Shown piece after piece: positions 953 to 38,829 of a stretch of 64,000 nt of DNA. The first letter of the stretch is position 1. Every line of letters begins with the position of its first letter. Below the pieces are notes generated by a model. That model did not search any database. It saw only the letters and a list, made by a program, of their open reading frames with translations, and had not been told where the DNA came from. Origin of the DNA: an uncultured Flavobacteriales bacterium (lineage in GTDB: Bacteria > Bacteroidota > Bacteroidia > Flavobacteriales_D > Crocinitomicaceae); assembly GCA_963926475.1 (NCBI GenBank), contig CAWUXE010000001.1:24820-88819 (forward strand), in the 5' to 3' direction. The translations under genes and the position numbers were made by a program.

Positions 953-3325
953 CTACTTCATCAACACCAACTTCTTAGGCGAAGCCATTTGTCCATTTGC
1001 CGTCTGAAGAACCAAAGTGTAAATCCCGTTCGCCAAATTATCCGTTTTCACGATGTATTCGCTTGCATTGTTTGAAATCAACTCAGAAGAAACTACTTTA
1101 CCATTGGCATCCAATAATTGGTAAGAACTTCCCATTAAATTTTCACTTGAACTTATCACAAAATCACCTTGTGATGGATTCGGATACAAGGTGAAATACA
1201 ATTGATGTTCATCTAAACCAACGCCTGAAGTACCCTTGTGAATAGTGAAATCATCGAAGTAGAAGCCATCTTGGCGAACTCCACCGTCTGCTTCTAAGAT
1301 AAAGCGAACTTTAATCGTTTCACCCAAATAATCTGATAACGAAATATCTTCGCGAACCCAGTTCTTCGTTCCTTCCCATACTGGTTTGCCATTCGGCTGA
1401 ACAGAACCGTTTGCGCTAGTTCCTGCCACGGTGTACAATCCACATTGACCAATCCATGTGCTGCCGTTATCGATAGAAACTTGAAATTGACAATAATCAT
1501 AATCTGATTCTATTTCCCATTTCGCGAAGAAGGAAACATCGGCATAATTGGCGTTTGTCAAATCAATTGGCGTCGCATATTCAAATGTTCGAGAAGAATT
1601 ATTCGTATAATTGACAGGATTACTCCCACTTTCAGAATCACTATACGCCTTGCTTGCCGAATAGGTTGTATGCGTTTCTGTCGTCCATGGTCCATTCCAT
1701 TGTCCTGCTGTGCTTGCATCGTCGAAAATAAAAACAGGATACGTTCCAAACAATTTTACTATCGTATCTCTATGTGTCCAAGTCGGATATACCGTTTCGA
1801 GGACATATTTAATGGTGTCATTTATCGCAATCCCAGCAGACAAAGTATAGGCAAAAGTTCCAGTTTGTGGTGTAATTTGAGCCAAATTATAATTCAGAGC
1901 ACCTCCAATTGTCGCTATATTTTGCAATGGTTGAATTTGGACAATTACATTACCAGTATCCATTCCGATTCTTTCCGCCAAATGATTGAAGTTTCCAGTC
2001 GAATTGGCCAATCTCTCTGGATCCTGATCTTCCACAATCAAATAAAGATGAGCAATATGCGCCAACATTAAATTTGGGAAAACCATGTTTTTCGAGTTTG
2101 GAATTATTTGACTCGATGCAGGCCAAAATCCACCTGTACCACCAATTTCTGGAGTCATAGCAAAAATTCTCGGCTTGTTTGATAAATCATCGTTGTACAT
2201 ATAATCATCAGAATCCCCTGAAGCTGGATATAAACCAGACGACTTCATGTTATTGTAACCGTTGTACTGAACCATGTATCCTGTAAATCGATCGAAATAA
2301 TTATGATGAACGGCAAATTCGTTCGAAGTCGTCCCAATCGGAAACAACAACAAATCGCCATAGGTATGTGCATTGAAAGCTAATTTGAAATCGTGATTTT
2401 CACAAAACCAACGCATGGCTTGCGTTTCCGCTTCTGAAAACGCACTAGTTCCTGGATAGGTATCGTTATTCGGGTCAAAACTAATTCCCGTTGTCCCCCA
2501 ACCGTAAGAATAATTTCTATTCAAATCCACACCCTTGTTTGAGGTACCCACATTTCGTCGGTTTTTTCTGTGCATTCCACCACCATTCGGATCTGTAAGC
2601 TCATTGTAGATATATCCATCTGGATTTAAACAAGGTACAAAATACATTTCCGTATTGTTCAATAAGTGCTGAATTTCTTCGGAACCGGCATAATTCTCCA
2701 ACAAATACCACATATAAAAAATGGTTGCCGACATTGAATTTGGTTCACGCGCATGGTGGACTGCAGAGTACATCACTTCTTTCTCACTGTTTTCATCAAT
2801 GTTTGGGTTGTCAGACATTCGAACCCAATAAATAACCGAATCGTTGATGGTGTGAAAAGTATCGATGGCAGATCTTTGGTTGATTAAATTCGGATAAAGA
2901 GCGTGCATAGCATCCAAATTATCTAGCATTTCTTGATAGGTTAAAAATCCAGCGTAAGTACCCAATTGAAAATTTGACGGGACAACTGGATCAAATCCAC
3001 CGCCACCTCCTGAATTAGGCAGACACGTTTCATTCTTCGTCGGCACAAAATCTAATTTGTTTTGCTCTACATAGTACTTTTTAACGTCGGCAATTAAAAT
3101 CTCAATAGTAAAACCTTCCGTTCTCATAGTAACAATTTCCTCTTTCGAAAAATCCGAAATGAAAAAATACCCTGGTTTATGCGTTCCATGATCTACTGCC
3201 AAACCCAGTGCAGACAAACGTTTCAATCCTTCTTCATCTGTATTAATTTTCACACGAGAATAGTCTTGTGCACTTAAAACGGATATAAAAAGAAGGGGAA
3301 CTAGAGTCAGAAATACGTTTTTCAT
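953..3325 (-). CDS. M14-family zinc carboxypeptidase with T9SS type-A C-terminal sorting domain
   Basis: Signal peptide MKNVFLTLVPLLFISVLSAQ. HHAREPNS and NRN..Y motifs of M14 peptidases. C-terminus YPNPSQGDFVISS...NGIYTLVLQT...KLVLMK matches the T9SS CTD pattern. Confidence 0.85.
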   Translation of the reverse strand: MKNVFLTLVPLLFISVLSAQDYSRVKINTDEEGLKRLSALGLAVDHGTHKPGYFFISDFSKEEIVTMRTEGFTIEILIADVKKYYVEQNKLDFVPTKNETCLPNSGGGGGFDPVVPSNFQLGTYAGFLTYQEMLDNLDAMHALYPNLINQRSAIDTFHTINDSVIYWVRMSDNPNIDENSEKEVMYSAVHHAREPNSMSATIFYMWYLLENYAGSEEIQHLLNNTEMYFVPCLNPDGYIYNELTDPNGGGMHRKNRRNVGTSNKGVDLNRNYSYGWGTTGISFDPNNDTYPGTSAFSEAETQAMRWFCENHDFKLAFNAHTYGDLLLFPIGTTSNEFAVHHNYFDRFTGYMVQYNGYNNMKSSGLYPASGDSDDYMYNDDLSNKPRIFAMTPEIGGTGGFWPASSQIIPNSKNMVFPNLMLAHIAHLYLIVEDQDPERLANSTGNFNHLAERIGMDTGNVIVQIQPLQNIATIGGALNYNLAQITPQTGTFAYTLSAGIAINDTIKYVLETVYPTWTHRDTIVKLFGTYPVFIFDDASTAGQWNGPWTTETHTTYSASKAYSDSESGSNPVNYTNNSSRTFEYATPIDLTNANYADVSFFAKWEIESDYDYCQFQVSIDNGSTWIGQCGLYTVAGTSANGSVQPNGKPVWEGTKNWVREDISLSDYLGETIKVRFILEADGGVRQDGFYFDDFTIHKGTSGVGLDEHQLYFTLYPNPSQGDFVISSSENLMGSSYQLLDANGKVVSSELISNNASEYIVKTDNLANGIYTLVLQTANGQMASPKKLVLMK

Positions 3326-3499: not shown

Positions 3500-5299
3500 A
3501 TGAGAAGTAAAGTTGGATTCGGAAATATCTTTTGGCCTAGTTTATTAGCTGCCTTAATTGTATCAATAATTGGTGTAATCATATGGTTAATAGCCGTCTT
3601 TGGAATAATTGGAAGTTTCTCATCCGTGGTTGAATCTACTGGTGTTTCAGCACCTAAAAACGCTGTGCTTCATATGAAATTGGACAAACCAATCGCTGAA
3701 AGAACGAGTGCTCAATTCAATCCAGGTTCCTTGAGTTTCGATAATCAAATTGGGTTGGCAGACATTCTTGAGGCATTGAAAATGGCTGAAAAGGACGAAA
3801 ACATCAAAGGTCTTTATCTTGAATTGGAAGGTTTACAGTGCAACTTCGTGACGGCAAAAGAAATCCGAAAAGCGATTAATCGTTTTGAAAAATCTGGAAA
3901 ATGGACCTTGGCCTACAACTCGGGCGAAGTCACTACCTTGAAAGAATATTACATTTCTTCTGCAGCGAGTAAGGTTTATGGTTTCCCAGCTAGCAATTTC
4001 GAAATGCTCGGGTTGGCCAGTGAAGTAGCGTTTTTCAAAGGGACACTGGATAAATTAGATCTTGAGCTTCAAGTGATTCGGGGAAGAGATAACGATTTCA
4101 AAAGTGCGATGGAGCCATTTTTCCTAGATAAAATAAGTGATTCTAGCCGTTTACAATTGAACACGTATATCCAAACAATTTGGGATGACGTTATTGGTGA
4201 TATTTCGAAAGCTCGAAACATTTCGACGGATAAAATCAATACAATTGCTGATGACATGTTGGCGGTGAATACGGAAGATGCCGTGAAGCATAACTTGATG
4301 GATGGCGTAAAATACCGAGACGAAATGATGAAAATGATTACCTCTAAATTGGGAAAAAAAGCAGATGATAAAATTGCGATGGTCAATTTTGAAAAATATT
4401 CTGTGAAAAATGTAAAGCGTGATTTAATCGCAAAAGGTTCAAACGGAAACATTGCCCTGATTTTAGCAGAAGGTGGTATTTCTGTTGATGGTAATGAAAT
4501 GACGTCGAAAGATATTTGCAAACAAGTGAAAGCAGCCCGTGAAAATGACAATGTGAAAATCGTTGTCTTGCGCATCAATAGTGGCGGTGGAAGTGCAATT
4601 GCAAGCGAGCAAATGTGGCGTGAAATTGATTTGACCAACAAGAAAAAGAAAGTCATTGTATCAATGGGAGACGTGGCTGCTTCAGGTGGATATTACATGG
4701 CAGCGCCAGCATACAAGATTTTTGCAGAACCTACGACTATAACGGGTTCAATTGGAGTTTTTGGCGCAATTCCGTATACCGCAGACATGTTTAAAAACAA
4801 ACTGGGCATGAGCTTCGATTATGTTTCAACCAACAAACACGAAGCCTTGAGTTCGAATAGAAGACTGACTCCTGAGGAGGTGGCGATGGTGCAAGATCAA
4901 ATTGATGATATTTACGAGACCTTTTTAAGTCGCGTTGCAGCTGGACGTAATATGACTAAAGAACAAGTAAATGTCATTGCTCGCGGGCGTGTTTGGGCTG
5001 GAAAAGATGCTAAGAAAATTGGACTAGTGGACGAACTAGGAGGATTGGAAGAAGCGATTAATTACGCTGCGAAAACGGCAGGAATTTCCAAAGGTGATAT
5101 AAACGTAATTTATTATCCGTTGCGAAAAGAGGACAAATGGGAAGCCATCGCAGAAATGATTGAAGAAAGTCAAAATAAAGCTATGATTAAAACAGAAAAA
5201 ATGCCAGCTTTGTTTATCAATGCTTTAGATCAATGGAAAAAAGTGGAAGCTATGTCCGGAATTCAAATGCGTTTACCATACGAATTGACAATAAAATAA
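3500..5299 (+). CDS. sppA: Signal peptide peptidase SppA, 67K (two-domain) type
   Basis: N-terminal TM segment. Duplicated ClpP-like domains with SGGGSAIASE and GDVAASGGYY motifs. ATG at 3500 preferred over the upstream GTG because of promoter box position. Confidence 0.9.
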   Translation: MRSKVGFGNIFWPSLLAALIVSIIGVIIWLIAVFGIIGSFSSVVESTGVSAPKNAVLHMKLDKPIAERTSAQFNPGSLSFDNQIGLADILEALKMAEKDENIKGLYLELEGLQCNFVTAKEIRKAINRFEKSGKWTLAYNSGEVTTLKEYYISSAASKVYGFPASNFEMLGLASEVAFFKGTLDKLDLELQVIRGRDNDFKSAMEPFFLDKISDSSRLQLNTYIQTIWDDVIGDISKARNISTDKINTIADDMLAVNTEDAVKHNLMDGVKYRDEMMKMITSKLGKKADDKIAMVNFEKYSVKNVKRDLIAKGSNGNIALILAEGGISVDGNEMTSKDICKQVKAARENDNVKIVVLRINSGGGSAIASEQMWREIDLTNKKKKVIVSMGDVAASGGYYMAAPAYKIFAEPTTITGSIGVFGAIPYTADMFKNKLGMSFDYVSTNKHEALSSNRRLTPEEVAMVQDQIDDIYETFLSRVAAGRNMTKEQVNVIARGRVWAGKDAKKIGLVDELGGLEEAINYAAKTAGISKGDINVIYYPLRKEDKWEAIAEMIEESQNKAMIKTEKMPALFINALDQWKKVEAMSGIQMRLPYELTIK

Positions 5300-7407: not shown

Positions 7408-7480
7408 GCGGGAGTGTAGACGAAAATTGAGCCAAAAAAAACAATGTGACGTTTTGGCAGAGAAAGATGAGTATGGTGGG

Positions 7481-30933: not shown

Positions 30934-30983
30934 TTCCTATACAAATTGGTGAAAACTTTTAGGAACGCCGAGCGTCTCACTTT

Positions 30984-31062
30984 TTCCCTTCGGCAGCATT
31001 ATCCGCATCAGGTCATGAGGGTATTTCTCAGAATGACGTGAAATTGTCAGACACCCCTAAAA
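30984..31062 (-). promoter_or_regulatory. TPP (THI-box) riboswitch aptamer controlling thiE-thiG-thiH
   Basis: Minus strand reads aggggtgtc...ctgagaaataccct.atgacctgatgcggataatgctgccgaaggga, matching the TPP riboswitch core. Confidence 0.85.
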
Positions 31063-31122
31063 GTTTTGGTAAAGATAGCGAATAAAAAATTCTATTCTTT
31101 ATCATATTTAAAATGAATTTGC

Positions 31123-31195: not shown

Positions 31196-31204
31196 ACTCT
31201 GACT

Positions 31205-31270
31205 TTAGGGGTGTCCGCGGACTGAGAAATACCCTTCGAACTTGAATCGGCTGACACCGACGGAAGGAAA
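31205..31270 (+). promoter_or_regulatory. TPP (THI-box) riboswitch aptamer controlling thiS-thiC-thiE-like-thiD
   Basis: ttaggggtgtccgcggactgagaaatacccttcgaacttgaatcggctgacaccgacggaaggaaa contains the ggggtg..ctgaga..accc..ga.c.tga core. Confidence 0.8.
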
Positions 31271-31316
31271 AGCGTTAGACCAATTTGGTTTTCCCCTGAA
31301 GCATATTTTAAATGAA

Positions 31317-34753: not shown

Positions 34754-35590
34754 TTAAGAATACACCGCTTTCAAGCTCATATCCAAGCTCTTTGCAGAAT
34801 GCGTCAATGCGCCAACCGAAATGCATTGAACGCCTGTTTCGGCATAGGATCGGATAGTTTCTAGGGTAATCCCGCCAGAAGCTTCGGTTTCGTATTGTTT
34901 AGGAATTGTTGGTAGAACAGCTGAAATCCTTGCTGGCGTGAAATTGTCGAGCATAATTCTGTCTACATTTCCCGTTTCCAAAACTTGTTTGAGTTCGTCT
35001 TCGTTTCTGACTTCGATTTCAATTTTCAAATCCAAATTATTGGATTTCACATATTCATTCGCTCGTTCGATTGCCTGACGTATTCCACCCGCATAATCGA
35101 CATGATTATCCTTCAACATAATCATATCGTACAAGGCAAAACGATGATTTTCGCCACCTCCAATTTTCACTGCCCATTTTTCCATGAAACGAATTCCAGG
35201 CGTTGTTTTACGGGTATCTAGAAGCTTCGTATTTGTTCCTTCTATGATTTTTACTATGCTATTAGTCTTTGTAGCAATTCCAGACATTCTTTGCATGAAA
35301 TTGAGCACCAAACGCTCTGTCGTTAAGATAGATCGAGAACTTCCTTCTACAGTAAATGCGATATCTCCATACTTGACAGGTGTGCCGTCAGGTATAAGAG
35401 TATTCATTTTTAAAGTTGGGTCAAACTGATGAAAAATCTTTTTTGCTAATTCTACTCCAGCCAGAATACCTTCATCTTTGATGAGCAATTTTGCGGTTCC
35501 TTTGGCATTTTCTGGAACACATGAAAGTGTTGAATGATCGCCAGGTCCAATGTCCTCGCGAAGGGCGTTTTCGATAATTTCTTCAATCAT
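34754..35590 (-). CDS. nadC: Nicotinate-nucleotide pyrophosphorylase (quinolinate phosphoribosyltransferase) NadC
   Basis: ALREDIGPGDHST, TRKTTPG, MLKDNH, IEVEV, MLDNF blocks. Confidence 0.95.
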   Translation of the reverse strand: MIEEIIENALREDIGPGDHSTLSCVPENAKGTAKLLIKDEGILAGVELAKKIFHQFDPTLKMNTLIPDGTPVKYGDIAFTVEGSSRSILTTERLVLNFMQRMSGIATKTNSIVKIIEGTNTKLLDTRKTTPGIRFMEKWAVKIGGGENHRFALYDMIMLKDNHVDYAGGIRQAIERANEYVKSNNLDLKIEIEVRNEDELKQVLETGNVDRIMLDNFTPARISAVLPTIPKQYETEASGGITLETIRSYAETGVQCISVGALTHSAKSLDMSLKAVYS

Positions 35591-35598
35591 AGAGCAAA
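35565..35598. repeat. 34-bp direct repeat, copy A (contains the functional nadC start codon and first 8 codons)
   Basis: gcgttttcgataatttcttcaatcatagagcaaa is identical base-for-base to 37845-37878. Confidence 0.95.
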
Positions 35599-35604
35599 AA
35601 ATTA

Positions 35605-36126
35605 CTACTCAATTACTAAAGGATAATCCTCCACTTCTCCATAAGAATCATTCTCAAAACAAGGGTCACTGCTTATCGTACTTCCTGCTCTTACAATGAA
35701 TCTGGCATAATATTCCCCTTTAACTGCATTAGAAGGAACCGTTATAGACTTCGTCACACTAGTAAAGTTGATGTTACTAGAAATCAATACACTTTCATCC
35801 GAATCTAAAAAGTCACCATCTCCATTCCAATCAAAATAAGCATAGATACCAACAGCTGGACTTGTAGTTTGAAAGTTAACTTGCAGATCATAGGCCTGTC
35901 CTTTTTTAACTTTGATAATCTTGTCTTTATAAAAATTATTTGGACCTGTTCCAAAGGTGTTATTGGTCATACCTGCCATTGAAACTTGACTGAAAAAATC
36001 CTCACTTGAATTATAAAATGTTATAACGCAAGGTAATTTTTTAACATTCCATGTAAAGTCATCTTTTGTACAGCTGAACAAAATTAAACTAGATAGAAAT
36101 GTGATATTACGAGTCATTGAATTCAT
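35605..36126 (-). CDS. Lipoprotein with C-terminal GEVED domain, function unknown
   Basis: Lipobox-like LILFSC signal and the literal C-terminal motif YGEVEDY. Confidence 0.6.
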   Translation of the reverse strand: MNSMTRNITFLSSLILFSCTKDDFTWNVKKLPCVITFYNSSEDFFSQVSMAGMTNNTFGTGPNNFYKDKIIKVKKGQAYDLQVNFQTTSPAVGIYAYFDWNGDGDFLDSDESVLISSNINFTSVTKSITVPSNAVKGEYYARFIVRAGSTISSDPCFENDSYGEVEDYPLVIE

Positions 36127-36128
36127 AA

Positions 36129-37664
36129 TTAAAATTTTGATAGTTTAACATCTATAGGAGATTCTTTTAGTTTTTTTCTGTAGTAGGCCGATTTTTTAAT
36201 GTTACCGAACCCTTTTACTAAAGACCAAGAGAAATCATAAACATAAGCAAGTCCAACAGCACCTATACAGACCATAAATAATTTTCGATCTGCATTAACA
36301 GCATCATAAGCTTCACTTGCTGCATTTTGATTTTGCGCTTCTTGATATGCTTTGTAATCGAGATTCTCCAAAACTTTGGTCACACCAGCCATAGATACAG
36401 ATAAGAGATAGGCGGATCCCGTTAGATATCCATTTTGACCACTTGAAACCTTACTTGCACCCCATCCTGGCAATACCAAAGAACAAAAAGCATATTGTGG
36501 ACCTGCATTCAACTTATAATCAATAAGTCGGATGTCTTTATCGGCTTGTTGATTACCATCAATTTTTATAAGTTTGGATTTGACATCAAAAGTGAAATTG
36601 CCATATTTATAGGATTGGGCATTGATGTAATCCTTAAAATCGCTTGGATTAATTTTAAAATACTTGTCAACCCCATTGATCCCTTTTCCATCTGAAACAA
36701 CATACTCATCAGATGAATTCCAATTAGCATCTATGGTAAAACTATCGTGAGAATTAACATAATAGCTAAATTTCTTGGATGGCGATAAGGTATTAGAAGT
36801 TAGAATATTGCTTATCTTTTTAAGAACAACTTCATTACTCACACCTTCAATTCGAGAATTATTTACACCATTTGTATCAAACTGAATAGAAACCTTAAAT
36901 TGGTAGGAGCCTTCAGGAGTATCATTAATTTCATTATTTAAAAGATTAGTGATTTCTCTTTTGAGATTGTTTAAGCTATTGCTGTTATCTTCTCGATAAA
37001 CATAACCTGCACCAGATCTAATAGAGAAAAATATAGTTATTTCATTCGACTTTTGATTTGCATCTACATGATTAGGATCTAACTTAAGCACTTCTTTGAA
37101 ATAATTTTGCGCCTCGTATAGTTTATTAGATTTATAAAATTCAAGAGCCTTAGAATGTGTAAGTTCAATTTTTCTTGCAAGTTCAATTTGAGCTTGTCTG
37201 ATCCTTTCTTGTTCGATTTCCTCTTGTTCTATCCGCAAGGCCTCCAAGCGCATACGCTCTTGTTCTTCACGTTCTTCTGCAATTTGCTGGGGAGTCTTAT
37301 AAAATTTTACATCCAAAATTTCAGAACCCCAAGACATACCTTCAAAACTTCTATAATATCTAAGTATTCTCCTATTAGAAAGGGCAATGGTAGGTGTTTT
37401 TCCTAATTCATAACCTTGAATATTAACCTTAAAAGTTTGGGTTTTATTATGTTCGTAAAATCCGCCTACATCGTCATAAACCCACACTCTCATTTTAATT
37501 TCCTTAATTACATAAGGCGAATTATTTTGAAGATCTATTCTGAAGGATTTAAGAGAATAGCCAGAACTACCATATTCCCATCTTGCATAATTTGCCGATG
37601 GATAATCTTGACCGTAACTAACAGAGAAGAAAAATAATAATATTATAAGTAAGTACCTTGCCAT
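36129..37664 (-). CDS. Hypothetical secreted/membrane protein with E/R-rich coiled coil, TPR-like motif and C-terminal TM helices
   Basis: Signal peptide MARYLLIILLFFFSVSYGQ. EEREEQERMRLEALRIEQEEIEQERIRQAQIE. ...LVLPGWGASK... and a hydrophobic segment near the C-terminus. No family recognised. Confidence 0.55.
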   Translation of the reverse strand: MARYLLIILLFFFSVSYGQDYPSANYARWEYGSSGYSLKSFRIDLQNNSPYVIKEIKMRVWVYDDVGGFYEHNKTQTFKVNIQGYELGKTPTIALSNRRILRYYRSFEGMSWGSEILDVKFYKTPQQIAEEREEQERMRLEALRIEQEEIEQERIRQAQIELARKIELTHSKALEFYKSNKLYEAQNYFKEVLKLDPNHVDANQKSNEITIFFSIRSGAGYVYREDNSNSLNNLKREITNLLNNEINDTPEGSYQFKVSIQFDTNGVNNSRIEGVSNEVVLKKISNILTSNTLSPSKKFSYYVNSHDSFTIDANWNSSDEYVVSDGKGINGVDKYFKINPSDFKDYINAQSYKYGNFTFDVKSKLIKIDGNQQADKDIRLIDYKLNAGPQYAFCSLVLPGWGASKVSSGQNGYLTGSAYLLSVSMAGVTKVLENLDYKAYQEAQNQNAASEAYDAVNADRKLFMVCIGAVGLAYVYDFSWSLVKGFGNIKKSAYYRKKLKESPIDVKLSKF

Positions 37665-37844
37665 AACTATTTTAATAAATGTTGTCACCAAAATAACAAA
37701 AAATTCAATGCTAAATAAATTCTATTCTAAACTTTCATGCATAAATAATGATTTCTTAAAATAGTTTGATATTTAAGAATGATTTGAATGTTGAATATCT
37801 ACAAACACTTTTCTCGATATAAGCCCAGCAAGCTTTGGCCACTT

Positions 37845-37878
37845 GCGTTTTCGATAATTTCTTCAATCATAGAGCAAA
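37845..37878. repeat. 34-bp direct repeat, copy B (orphan copy of the nadC 5' end)
   Basis: Identical to 35565-35598. Read on the minus strand it opens a 23-codon ORF, MIEEIIENASGQSLLGLYREKCL*, sharing only the first 8 residues (plus 2 nt of the ninth, Ala, codon) with NadC. Confidence 0.95.
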
Positions 37879-37893
37879 GATAAAAATCTGACT

Positions 37894-38277
37894 CTAATTT
37901 TCTATGTTCAAGGTCTCGATAAGATATTTGCCGTTGACCTTTTTGAAGTGGAAGGTTACTCTGAAAACATTACCATTAACGGTGTAATTACCAATTGAAA
38001 AAGCGCTTGCCCCTTCTTTCCCAGGATGGATAATCTCGAATTTACCTTTGGGATATTTGGTAAAAAAATCTTTTAGGATCAATTTCGCTTGCGACTTCGA
38101 ATAGGCACCATCTTTACCGAGAACCGTCATCAAAACCTTTTCATTCATCAGGCTTTCTATTGCTCCAGCATCACTAGCTTTAAAGGCTTTCTCAATTTCG
38201 GCATGCGGCAAACTGGAAATTCCAGAGATGCTCAAGATTGCGGTCGCAATGAAAATATATAGGTAACTCATGATCAA
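37894..38277 (-). CDS. Small secreted protein, DUF4783-like
   Basis: Signal peptide and about 125-aa size. The pattern AFKASDAGAIESLM...LILKDFF resembles DUF4783, as I recall it next to nadC in Bacteroidota. Confidence 0.5.
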   Translation of the reverse strand: MIMSYLYIFIATAILSISGISSLPHAEIEKAFKASDAGAIESLMNEKVLMTVLGKDGAYSKSQAKLILKDFFTKYPKGKFEIIHPGKEGASAFSIGNYTVNGNVFRVTFHFKKVNGKYLIETLNIEN

Positions 38278-38355
38278 TAATTTTAACCAAATTTAGCAAA
38301 AACAATGCCGTAATTCAAGCTTGTAAAGTTAAATGAACAAATGTACCTTCGCGAT

Positions 38356-38829
38356 GTGAAAATAAAAGTCATTTGCATAGGGAAAACAGGTAAAAGCTTT
38401 CTAGTCGAAGGTGAAAACGAATATTTGAAGCGCCTGAAGCATTATGTACCGTTCGAAAAAGTAGAAATTCCCGATATTAAAAACGCAAAAAAACTGTCGC
38501 AAGTAGAGGTGAAAACTCTCGAGAGCAAAGAAATTTTGGCTAAAATAGACAGCTCGGATTACGTCGTAGTTTTAGACGAAAAAGGAAAAGAATTTACCAG
38601 TGAACAATTTGCCGAATACTTTCAAAAAAGATTCAATCAGGGCGGTAAAACGATTGTTTTTATCATTGGTGGAGCCTTTGGGTTTTCCGCTGAATTGTAT
38701 GCGCGAGCGAACGGTAAAATTGCACTTTCGAAGATGACTTTTTCGCATCAAATGATTCGAATGCTGTTTTTTGAACAAGTTTATCGAGCGATGACCATTT
38801 TGAAGGGTGAACCTTATCATCATAGTTGA
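38356..38829 (+). CDS. rlmH: 23S rRNA (pseudouridine1915-N3)-methyltransferase RlmH
   Basis: VKIKVICIGKT start (GTG), IIGGAFG and EQVYRAMTILKGEPYHH C-terminus. 157 aa as typical. Confidence 0.9.
   Translation: MKIKVICIGKTGKSFLVEGENEYLKRLKHYVPFEKVEIPDIKNAKKLSQVEVKTLESKEILAKIDSSDYVVVLDEKGKEFTSEQFAEYFQKRFNQGGKTIVFIIGGAFGFSAELYARANGKIALSKMTFSHQMIRMLFFEQVYRAMTILKGEPYHHS

Follow-up and report, generated by a model that had tools for sequence, protein, structure and literature searches.

A two-gene insertion flanked by a 34-bp duplication of the nadC start is polymorphic in an aquatic Crocinitomicaceae population

Within an aquatic Crocinitomicaceae population, a compositionally foreign two-gene cassette lies at the start of nadC in about half of the members, flanked by a perfect 34-bp direct repeat that duplicates the beginning of the gene. 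We read this locus as one historical duplicative insertion of acquired DNA at nadC that now persists as a presence/absence polymorphism, with no dedicated mobile element behind it, and give this reading a probability of about 0.5. The insertion itself is genuine, but none of the observations establishes a mobile element of a new kind. A sequence-only reading of the locus had placed the insertion in an ancestral DUF4783–nadC junction with rlmH nearby, which six empty contigs and about 25 related genomes bore out; it had also suggested an integrative cassette, decayed or mobilised in trans, or else an insertion mechanism not yet described, and that part fared less well, as set out below.

The 34-mer GCGTTTTCGATAATTTCTTCAATCATAGAGCAAA occurs twice in the window (the whole 64-kb stretch of DNA that was analysed), with 0 mismatches and a spacing of 2280 bp (Table 1). 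No third copy was found in the window at ≤3 mismatches, 100 shuffles yielded 0 chance matches, and no other direct repeat of ≥24 nt exists in the window. Identity stops at 34 bp on both sides, with no extension. On the minus strand, copy A reads TTTGCTCT followed by ATG ATT GAA GAA ATT ATC GAA AAC and GC, which corresponds to 8 nt of leader, eight nadC codons and 2 nt of the ninth; it is here that nadC really starts, whereas the ORF opened by copy B is a dead end of 23 codons. The presence/absence unit, cassette plus one 34-mer, is exactly 2280 bp, and the 2246 bp between the repeats hold two co-oriented genes encoding a GEVED-domain lipoprotein and a 511-aa membrane protein, preceded by an AT-rich stretch. 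On all these points the sequence-only reading held. Its proposed check of GC content and codon usage marked the cassette as foreign (GC 0.324 versus 0.383; GC3 0.24-0.26 versus 0.33-0.45).

Table 1. Features of the nadC locus, with positions in the window.
Feature	Coordinates	Strand	Remarks
nadC, quinolinate phosphoribosyltransferase, intact	34754..35590	-	278-aa ORF; QRPTase_N E = 3.3e-19, QRPTase_C E = 1.9e-57 (Pfam)
34-bp direct repeat, copy A	35565..35598	-	functional nadC start: 8-nt leader, ATG, next 23 nt coding
Inserted cassette, 2246 bp	35599..37844	-	GC 0.324, lowest among all 2246-bp windows of the 64 kb
GEVED-domain lipoprotein, 170-173 aa	35605..36126	-	PF20009 E = 3.9e-19; stop 6 nt from copy A
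511-aa envelope/membrane protein	36129..37664	-	ATG at 37664 used by gene callers; 520 aa from TTG at 37691
AT-rich cassette 5' region, 180 nt	37665..37844	-	25% GC; upstream of the 511-aa gene
Dead-end ORF, MIEEIIENASGQSLLGLYREKCL and stop, 23 codons	37799..37870	-	opened by copy B
34-bp direct repeat, copy B	37845..37878	-	DUF4783 side; last 4 nt of nadC -7 box, 4-nt spacer, pseudo-start ATG, 23 further nadC coding nt
TATCTTTG, match to Bacteroidota sigma-A -7 box TAnnTTTG	37875..37882	-	ends 4 nt before copy-B ATG
DUF4783 gene, ancestral upstream neighbour of nadC	37894..38277	-	125 aa from ATG at 38271

Two states only are seen in independent assemblies of the same species, whose flanks are >99.5% identical. 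Where the site is filled, the cassette lies between the repeats as in the window; empty sites read DUF4783, one 34-mer and nadC, base-exact and with identical flanks, in the six contigs shown (L003, L006 and L008-L011), which is what the alignment proposed in the sequence-only reading was to look for. Contigs with the exact NadC protein comprise four filled and six empty places shown, or eight filled and seven empty when those listed as similar are added, and NadC is 100% identical between the two states. A separate look-up via DUF4783 returned the same two states only; across the 23 contigs read in each of the NadC-based and DUF4783-based look-ups, the site had neither a larger element nor other cargo, and showed no tandem accretion. 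That the second 34-mer or the placement of the cassette is a mis-join has close to no probability. One short contig, L001, holds only the cassette and ends inside the repeat, where assemblers break, and assembly-graph structure explains it; both junctions, however, are crossed in independent assemblies from different pipelines and samples (L002, L004, L005 and L007), L036 spans both repeats, and the empty alleles are equally well supported. The filled structure recurs in independent assemblies from ENA, JGI, NCBI and Logan, and k141-prefixed record names suggest a k-mer far longer than the repeat.

The empty state is also the ancestral one. DUF4783 lies directly upstream of nadC in ~25 related genomes, in ~17 of which rlmH is upstream as well; none of the ~25 genomes with both genes has an insert between them, and none of 35 related loci examined has a second nadC 5' copy. 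The DUF4783→nadC adjacency is ancestral in related Bacteroidota.

The flanks of filled and empty alleles differ at ≤0.5% of positions, with no SNP linked to either state; between L004 (filled) and L008 (empty), 0/3300 and 2/4000 flank positions differ. The cassette was found on three flank haplotype groups, empty sites occur on backgrounds identical to filled ones, and both alleles sit on identical flank haplotypes within samples of one study. Cassette copies are 99.8-100% identical except in mosaic patches, and their variation is mosaic and mostly non-synonymous. The mosaic patches in L036 and L007 did not come from an L030-type allele, and the idea that the cassette is younger than its flanks was withdrawn, the excess flank divergence of L005 being one recombination patch in nadC. 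Comparison of each stretch of the window's remaining ~42 kb with 2-5 conspecific contigs revealed no other indel >5 bp, and about 58 kb compared between strains showed no other indel, repeat-flanked or not. Under the single-insertion reading, the polymorphism would be kept by strains exchanging the flanks through ordinary homologous recombination, and precise loss through recombination or slippage between the 34-bp repeats would restore the ancestral sequence.

The insertion point coincides with a predicted promoter. In flavobacteria the motif TAnnTTTG spans positions -12 to -5 relative to the transcription start site (PMC9723704), and TATCTTTG matches it. The insertion boundary splits this box between TATC and TTTG, leaving it intact only upstream of copy B; on the copy A side it is disrupted and reads ATTTTTTG. 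In 13/75 related loci such a box ends 4-5 nt ahead of the nadC ATG, and TATCTTTG is the predicted native nadC promoter element, with nadC itself predicted to be leaderless. As the 34-mer begins inside this -7 box, copy B would therefore keep an intact promoter and transcription start. On consensus motifs, the copy B promoter probably drives the dead-end ORF and the cassette, and nadC, its own box destroyed, may be expressed by read-through as the last gene, its start context apparently preserved by copy A.

Both cassette products carry features of envelope proteins. The PF20009 match of the lipoprotein scores 69.7 bits against a gathering cut-off of 24.4 and covers residues 94-170, and its conserved lipobox, …LILFSC, is followed by TKDDF. 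Surface lipoproteins of Bacteroidota carry an export signal, K-(D/E)2, after the lipobox cysteine (PMC5080379), which C-T-K-D-D-F matches. TKDDF follows the cysteine in the window and in 8/9 homologues from different contexts, L024 having TKYDF, and the protein is predicted to be a surface-type, putatively surface-exposed lipoprotein. The 511-aa protein comprises, in order, a signal peptide, a beta-sandwich, a coiled coil of ~55 residues, one TPR, two mixed domains and a C-terminal hydrophobic helical hairpin. Pfam returned only the one TPR, as did a profile search of the PDB; NCBIfam and PADLOC gave nothing meaningful; and the AlphaFold2 model (pLDDT 87) had no informative fold match, with no Foldseek match in the PDB at E below 0.01. 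The two genes always occur together. The proposal that they form a two-component envelope module stands as far as a conserved pair of envelope proteins; the HMM and structure searches suggested with it added the GEVED and TPR assignments and no informative fold.

The pair recurs in ~ten other genomic contexts in other lineages, beside tRNA-Phe, hypothetical genes or a paralogue array, and the closest relatives of the cassette adjoin tRNA-Phe or hypothetical genes. Where both flanks were long enough to compare, no flanking repeats were found, apart from the ambiguous L034. There, a repeat pair of ~47 near-identical nt flanks the two genes; it belongs to tandem paralogues, covering their 3' end and untranslated region, is most simply explained by paralogy, and was rejected as a second target duplication. 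The search for further copies flanked by duplicated 5' gene ends, proposed in the sequence-only reading, returned none among comparable flanks, with the same proviso for L034. A 15-nt flanking repeat in L012, spaced by 2264 bp, was put down to chance, as it lies in AT-rich sequence and shows two mismatches in L013; the 31-nt repeats of L107 and L108, like the repeats seen in L039, are short, dispersed ones that do not flank the cassette. Likeness of the pair's 3' flanks elsewhere to the 34-mer, seen with MAFFT, was not significant in local alignment against shuffled flanks (p = 0.07-0.96), and a circular permutation, in which the segment at the left end of the window's cassette would form the downstream flank elsewhere, gave no matches. 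The AT-rich 5' region aligns to the closest homologous locus, L030, over its last ~57 nt only, and the cassette's leftmost ~123 nt are without a homologue beside the pair at other sites. Many cassette homologues lie on contigs of 2.3-2.7 kb, which could be repeat-bounded, polymorphic insertions in other populations too.

A different account of the repeats invokes site-specific recombination. In it, the two 34-mers would be attL and attR, copies of an att core, and the cassette a decayed or minimal integrative element resembling a cis-mobilisable element (CIME), moved in trans by an integrase whose gene lies at another place in the genome or on a related ICE or phage targeting the nadC 5' end. 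The junction of an excised circle would then read …GAGTAGTAATTT-34-mer-AAGTGGCC…. By definition, CIMEs have lost their integration and transfer genes and keep attL and attR (PMC5704250). Perfect 34-bp repeats that include the nadC start and restore the interrupted gene end, together with base-exact single-core empty sites in related strains, form the classical attL/attR signature; active excision and integration would likewise give filled and empty alleles on identical haplotypes in one study and a cassette on three flank haplotype groups, and the leftmost ~123 nt could be an arm remnant. Yet neither the cassette nor the rest of the 64-kb window encodes a recombinase, integrase, transposase or Cas1 domain, and no cognate ICE, IME or phage was found. 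CIMEs usually occupy the 3' end of a tRNA or housekeeping gene, whereas this insertion lies in a 5' promoter/start region. Other elements at the same site, whether as accretions, alternative cargo or larger elements, were absent from the 23 contigs of each look-up, the ~25 related genomes, the 35 loci and the phage search; the 22-nt core was absent from the phage contigs searched; no phage, plasmid or viral contig was found with the 34-mer core or the gene pair; and the pair has no att-like repeats at its other sites where testable. Neither dyad symmetry nor a hairpin is present in the 34-mer (minimum free energy -0.5 kcal/mol, z = 0.73), which is ordinary coding and promoter sequence; the ~28-bp sites of Xer/dif elements (IMEX, dif modules), by contrast, consist of two inverted arms with a 6-8-nt spacer between them. 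No attC-type hairpin as in integron gene cassettes is present at the junctions, whose folding is no more stable than that of shuffled sequences (z = 0.21 and -0.06), the window holds no integron integrase, and Rfam has no match in 35400-38400. We regard an att-type origin, including an integrase acting in trans, as unlikely but worth keeping in view. The mobile-cassette proposal of the sequence-only reading finds no support in the same observations: no other cassette at the site, no phage or plasmid copy, no dyad, no recombinase in the 64-kb window, and a pair that sits at ~ten other contexts without flanking repeats where testable, L034 being ambiguous.

The minimal segment for RecA-dependent exchange is 25-30 bp, and the 34-bp repeat lies just above it. 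The observed order of flank, homology, cassette 5' to 3' end, homology and gene is the exact product of a single crossover between the chromosomal nadC start and a circle carrying the cassette and the first 34 bp of nadC, that is, of Campbell-type insertion-duplication, in which a homologous target segment is likewise duplicated around the insert and recombination between the duplicates reverses the event, explaining precise loss. Such a crossover nevertheless requires a prior molecule in which the cassette already abuts nadC, pushing the origin back only one step. No source molecule with cassette and nadC start is known, the closest relatives lying beside tRNA-Phe or hypothetical genes; the homology here is only 34 bp, and the pair's 3' flanks elsewhere have no significant similarity to it (all p>0.07). 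As the whole explanation, we consider this improbable.

Transposase target duplications are typically 2-14 bp. The insert resembles transposons, IS elements and their transposase-less derivatives (MIC, MITE) in being flanked by a direct target duplication; unlike DDE transposon or IS-derived elements, it has a 34-bp duplication, a single copy, no transposase and no terminal inverted repeats, its ends AAGTGGCC… and …GTAGTAATTT not being inverted repeats and the best inverted pair being internal and 75% complementary. Cas1-mediated integration (CRISPR repeats, casposons) produces target duplications of ~14-50 bp through widely staggered joining; that long duplication is the likeness, but the locus has no Cas1, CRISPR array or terminal inverted repeats, and the insert is 2.2 kb of ordinary genes. 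An undescribed mechanism could make ~34-nt staggered cuts, Cas1-/casposase-like or other, and place promoter-less cassettes at promoter/start sites with long target duplications. A duplication far above the transposase range, an element without terminal inverted repeats or recombinase, and an insertion point exactly inside the -7 box and start-site region all fit. Against it, there is a single instance, no other repeat-flanked indel in ~58 kb among conspecific contigs, no comparable repeat at the pair elsewhere (the L034 exception being explained by paralogy), and no cas1-like or other candidate gene in the window; we hold it very improbable. The broader idea, that the duplication is the footprint of an undescribed Bacteroidota pathway, acting in trans or by widely staggered cuts, which places promoter-less surface-protein cassettes behind host promoters and leaderless starts and duplicates the start region so that the host gene survives, is a long shot; on it, the 2.3-2.7-kb cassette-only homologue contigs would be further repeat-bounded insertions.

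The single-insertion reading accommodates these observations as follows. A horizontally acquired two-gene operon would have inserted once at the nadC promoter/start, duplicating 34 bp of target, and the duplication would be the footprint of that single illegitimate event; candidate routes are staggered-break fill-in, template switching during replication, or a circular fragment entering in Campbell fashion via short homology. Because no donor junction for the duplication was found, this mechanism is reached by exclusion, and a dedicated, repeatedly acting element is probably not behind it. Small additive islets of the flexible genome of aquatic bacteria carry surface proteins and usually sit at tRNA genes or in large hypervariable islands. 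The cassette shares with them presence/absence within a species-level population, low GC, products predicted to be surface-exposed, variation that is mosaic and mostly non-synonymous, and spread through homology of the flanks; it differs as a single two-gene unit that splits a promoter, with a perfect 34-bp duplication.

In this uncultured aquatic bacterium the locus records a natural gain and loss of genes cleanly and to the base, and the two alleles can be compared with the ancestral arrangement and with a close relative of the inserted DNA. It exemplifies an acquired surface-protein operon wired, as predicted, into a host promoter with the NAD-biosynthesis gene unharmed. If the 34-bp duplication were the true signature of a dedicated mechanism it would be new; the present evidence does not require one. 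The gene pair itself, uncharacterised and horizontally mobile, is a reasonable candidate determinant of phage, grazer or adhesion interactions.

The 34-mer GCGTTTTCGATAATTTCTTCAATCATAGAGCAAA occurs in two perfect copies and is the sole long direct repeat of the window; identity extends on neither side, and no third copy was present in the window at up to 3 mismatches (0 in 100 shuffles). Copy A lies at the real nadC start, and copy B, the duplicate on the DUF4783 side, opens only a 23-codon dead-end ORF. Between them lies a 2246-bp, two-gene cassette, with all relevant genes on the minus strand. The junctions of this filled site read AAAACGC/AAGTGGCC and GTAATTT/TTTGCTC, and the circular junction expected of an excised cassette would be …GAGTAGTAATTT-[34-mer]-AAGTGGCCAAAG…. 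When the repeat, the content of both copies and the gene positions were re-derived, every descriptive statement of the sequence-only reading proved correct. Separately, a back-to-back pair of TPP riboswitches lies between the divergent thiamine operons adjoining the nadC locus.

Features of the nadC locus, in window coordinates
Feature	Position	Strand	Remark
DUF4783 gene	37894-38277	-	upstream neighbour
TAnnTTTG box	37875-37882	-	
34-mer, copy B	37845-37878	-	followed by 180 nt of 25% GC
Left-end segment of cassette	37722-37844	-	unique, 123 nt
511-aa ORF	36129-37664	-	520-aa TTG start not the gene callers' choice
GEVED-domain lipoprotein gene	35605-36126	-	PF20009, E=3.9e-19; 6 nt from copy A
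34-mer, copy A	35565-35598	-	8-nt leader, ATG, seven further codons and 2 nt
nadC	34754-35590	-	start codon within copy A
Mosaic regions of L036 and L007	36281-36432, 37204-37478, 35645-35688		
TPP riboswitches	30968-31068, 31197-31285	-, +	Rfam RF00059; 59.6 and 65.2 bits

An exact-sequence NadC look-up across ENA, JGI, NCBI and Logan assemblies returned 23 contigs. The filled arrangement of the window was seen at 4 shown places (L002, L004, L005, L007), and an empty arrangement, in which DUF4783 is followed by 23 nt and nadC, at 6 (L003, L006, L008-L011); adding places listed as similar gives 8 filled versus 7 empty. A second look-up based on DUF4783 returned the same two states only. At base level, an empty site has the flanks of a filled one on either side of a single 34-mer, so exactly 2280 bp, made up of the cassette and one repeat, set the two states apart. 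Because a 2344-bp scaffold (L036) crosses both repeats, a 2306-bp Logan contig (L001) forms the cassette branch of an assembly graph, and several independent assemblies are involved, an assembly artefact is excluded. The species recurs in many assemblies, and its DUF4783 protein appears in 132 indexed blocks of the collection. Metagenomes with both alleles include the MARK18-1 and HER22 samples and ERR12120028, and GCA_037625805.1 and GCA_037620245.1 are among the filled and empty MAGs.

A NadC scan of species-representative genomes yielded 80 loci, the nearest of them from Crocinitomicaceae MAGs (top NadC identity, 88%). DUF4783 lay directly upstream of nadC in ~25 of the 80, from Crocinitomicaceae and other Bacteroidota, with rlmH also upstream in ~17 of these; rlmH directly preceded nadC in many Flavobacteriaceae. 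None of the ~25 related loci held cassette genes between DUF4783 and nadC, and a second copy of the locus's own nadC 5' end was found in 0 of 35 loci examined. Because these relatives have neither cassette nor nadC 5' duplicate, the empty state is ancestral and the cassette derived. The proposed insertion into an ancestral DUF4783-nadC order was thus borne out by the ~25 related loci together with the empty conspecific sites: the cassette is a derived insertion of 2280 bp, precise and polymorphic, with 34 bp of its target duplicated. Other repeats were seen near nadC in the compared loci. A Taishania MAG (L052, 7387-8760) has a CRISPR-like array with 47-48-nt repeats (GTTGTGATTTGCTTTCAAAAGTTCTATTTTTACGGATAAGTTACAAC) ~1.4 kb downstream of nadC, and L039 (191-320, 2008-2140) and L108 (~145-199, 3207-3261) have dispersed short repeats of ~55-130 nt near rlmH-nadC, one with a C-rich/G-rich hairpin-like core; all of these repeats are unrelated to the cassette.

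Flank divergence among 11 sequences was 0.5% at most, and no flank SNP was tied to the filled or empty state. Filled L004 and empty L008 differed at 0/3300 and 2/4000 flank positions, and the left flanks of L007 (filled) and L003 (empty) were identical. The cassette sits on three flank haplotype groups (the window with L002, L005, and a main group), and empty sites on the main group only. Cassette copies differed at 0-4 of 2246 positions, except for L007 and L036, which carry alleles at the same nadC site with short mosaic patches, one of them ~80% identical and containing a 12-nt deletion. Most of the mosaic changes are non-synonymous; in L036, 52 nucleotide differences alter 36 amino acids. 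The changes affect the membrane region at the C-terminal end of the 511-aa protein as well as the C-terminus of the GEVED protein. The data are consistent with a single gain and later loss or exchange of alleles, whether loss came about by RecA-type deletion across the two repeats or through excision by an integrase.

The ~42 kb of remaining window, compared with 2-5 conspecific contigs per stretch (7 in all), was 99.5-99.99% identical and free of indels >5 bp, making the cassette the sole gene-content difference in ~58 kb. One contig, L127 (ENA HER22_SIP_1000-contig-27581, ERZ21835296), matches window positions 41254-62228 at 99.99%, with 2 mismatches over 21 kb. In L005 (GCA_037625805.1), 17 substitutions cluster within ~150 nt of nadC (~35168-35318), all synonymous because the NadC protein is identical; this cluster resembles a patch acquired by recombination from a more distant lineage. 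The notion that the cassette is less diverged than its flanks was dropped, since L005 flank divergence is mostly this patch.

In composition the insert is foreign: at 0.324 versus 0.383, its GC, which the sequence-only reading had proposed to check, is below that of every other 2246-bp stretch of the window, and its GC3 was 0.24-0.26 versus 0.33-0.45. Pfam searches across essentially every gene of the 64-kb window found no integrase, transposase or Cas1, leaving no recombinase nearby. The cassette ends lack inverted repeats, the 34-mer and junctions lack a hairpin or dyad, and Rfam had no match in the cassette region. Neither the 22-nt core of the 34-mer nor the gene pair turned up in IMG/VR contigs, GenBank phages or PLSDB plasmids. 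An att-type origin, with an integrase acting in trans (CIME-like), is a less likely alternative: no cognate element was found in the 64 kb searched, and no other users of the site among the contigs and related loci read; Campbell entry through the 34 bp of homology seems improbable. No second example of the event was found, and a novel long-stagger integration mechanism appears the least probable origin of all.

Close homologues of the 511-aa protein formed 19 clusters at 90% identity, and the GEVED lipoprotein gene directly followed the 511-aa gene wherever both were visible. The pair occupies ~10 different genomic contexts, with nadC nearby in none of the others: between tRNA-Phe and a T9SS CHU_C/SprB gene in L030 (90% nucleotide identity to the window cassette), between hypothetical genes in L012-L017, L018-L022 and L023, and in a tandem array of paralogues in L034. 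Comparison of the 3 kb upstream with the 3 kb downstream of the pair, in the 8 contexts with long enough flanks, found no flanking repeats except in L034, where the repeat is the 3' end plus untranslated region of neighbouring paralogues. Window-L030 homology runs from ~57 nt before the 511-aa ATG to the GEVED stop codon and, because it stops there, the mobile unit is barely more than two ORFs. Pair GC equals host GC in some lineages and is again lower in L030 and L034. Given these contexts, flanks and compositions, the pair moves horizontally between genomes as cargo, without constant ends or repeats. Two candidate relationships were rejected: the likeness of 3' flanks elsewhere to the 34-mer was not significant, and the L036/L007 mosaic patches do not derive from an L030-type allele.

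In L030 (3138-5700), the pair lies ~400 nt downstream of tRNA-Phe(GAA) at GC 0.324 versus 0.361 in the flanks, with no integrase or tRNA-fragment repeat in the 10 kb of L030 covered. In L034 (4150-8300), a 44%-identical pair (GC 0.27 versus 0.35 in the flanks) sits in a tandem array whose paralogues are secreted proteins of the KIGxQxWM… type, adjoins, by eye, a MazF/PemK-like toxin-antitoxin pair, and is bracketed by ~47 near-identical nt (4810-4866 and 7418-7463) including a paralogue 3' end. Paralogy is the simplest reading of these repeats; a second duplicative insertion is still conceivable.

The promoter geometry around the nadC start is new in this analysis. Directly upstream of the nadC ATG stands TATCTTTG, then 4 nt. 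In flavobacteria TAnnTTTG serves as the sigma-A -7 box, at -12 to -5 from the transcription start (PMC9723704), making the A of the ATG the predicted start and the nadC mRNA, by prediction, leaderless. In 13 of 75 related loci (L039, L042, L049-L051, L053, L057, L060-L062, L064, L065, L069), a box stops 4-5 nt short of the nadC ATG; the closest relative, L038, has none. Background occurrence is ~81 per 128 kb on both strands. This pattern predicts that some Crocinitomicaceae share a conserved leaderless nadC mRNA. At its left edge, the 34-mer splits the box (TATC/TTTG), which is whole at copy B; copy A is preceded by ATTTTTTG, without the TA. On the same strand, the 511-aa gene has no further consensus box upstream. 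In filled strains, the nadC promoter would fire at copy B, giving a transcript that spans the dead-end ORF and the cassette. nadC, whose start context copy A would preserve, would then probably be expressed by read-through from the GEVED gene, which ends 14 nt before it.

In the lipoprotein, a conserved lipobox leads into C-T-K-D-D-F; TKDDF is found in the window and in 8 of the 9 homologues taken from separate contexts, with TKYDF in L024. The motif fits K-(D/E)2, the signal for surface export of lipoproteins in Bacteroidetes (PMC5080379), predicting a surface lipoprotein. GEVED was described as a stalk-type domain found in fibrillar adhesins (PMC10952558). A confident AlphaFold2 model of the 511-aa protein (pLDDT 87) comprises a signal peptide, a beta-sandwich, a ~55-residue helix, one TPR, two mixed domains and a hydrophobic C-terminal helical hairpin; it had no informative PDB match by sequence or fold, nor one in NCBIfam or PADLOC. 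Its C-terminal ~350 residues (~150-510; TPR, two domains and hydrophobic hairpin) belong to a far larger uncharacterised family of 136 clusters at 50% identity (E≤1e-30; P0020-P0167), whose members are mostly 600-700 aa with other N-termini and only TPR in Pfam. The cargo is fairly described as a two-component envelope or surface module.

The most likely origin, with a probability of about 0.5, is one historical duplicative illegitimate insertion. An undamaged nadC and the promoter acquired by the cassette would have favoured the survival of such an insertion, and the cassette may now segregate via flank homology and repeat-mediated precise deletion. The locus offers no evidence for a new element class; it is a well-resolved case of a known kind of event, the strain-variable surface-gene islet, with a duplication here that is unusually long and functionally placed.
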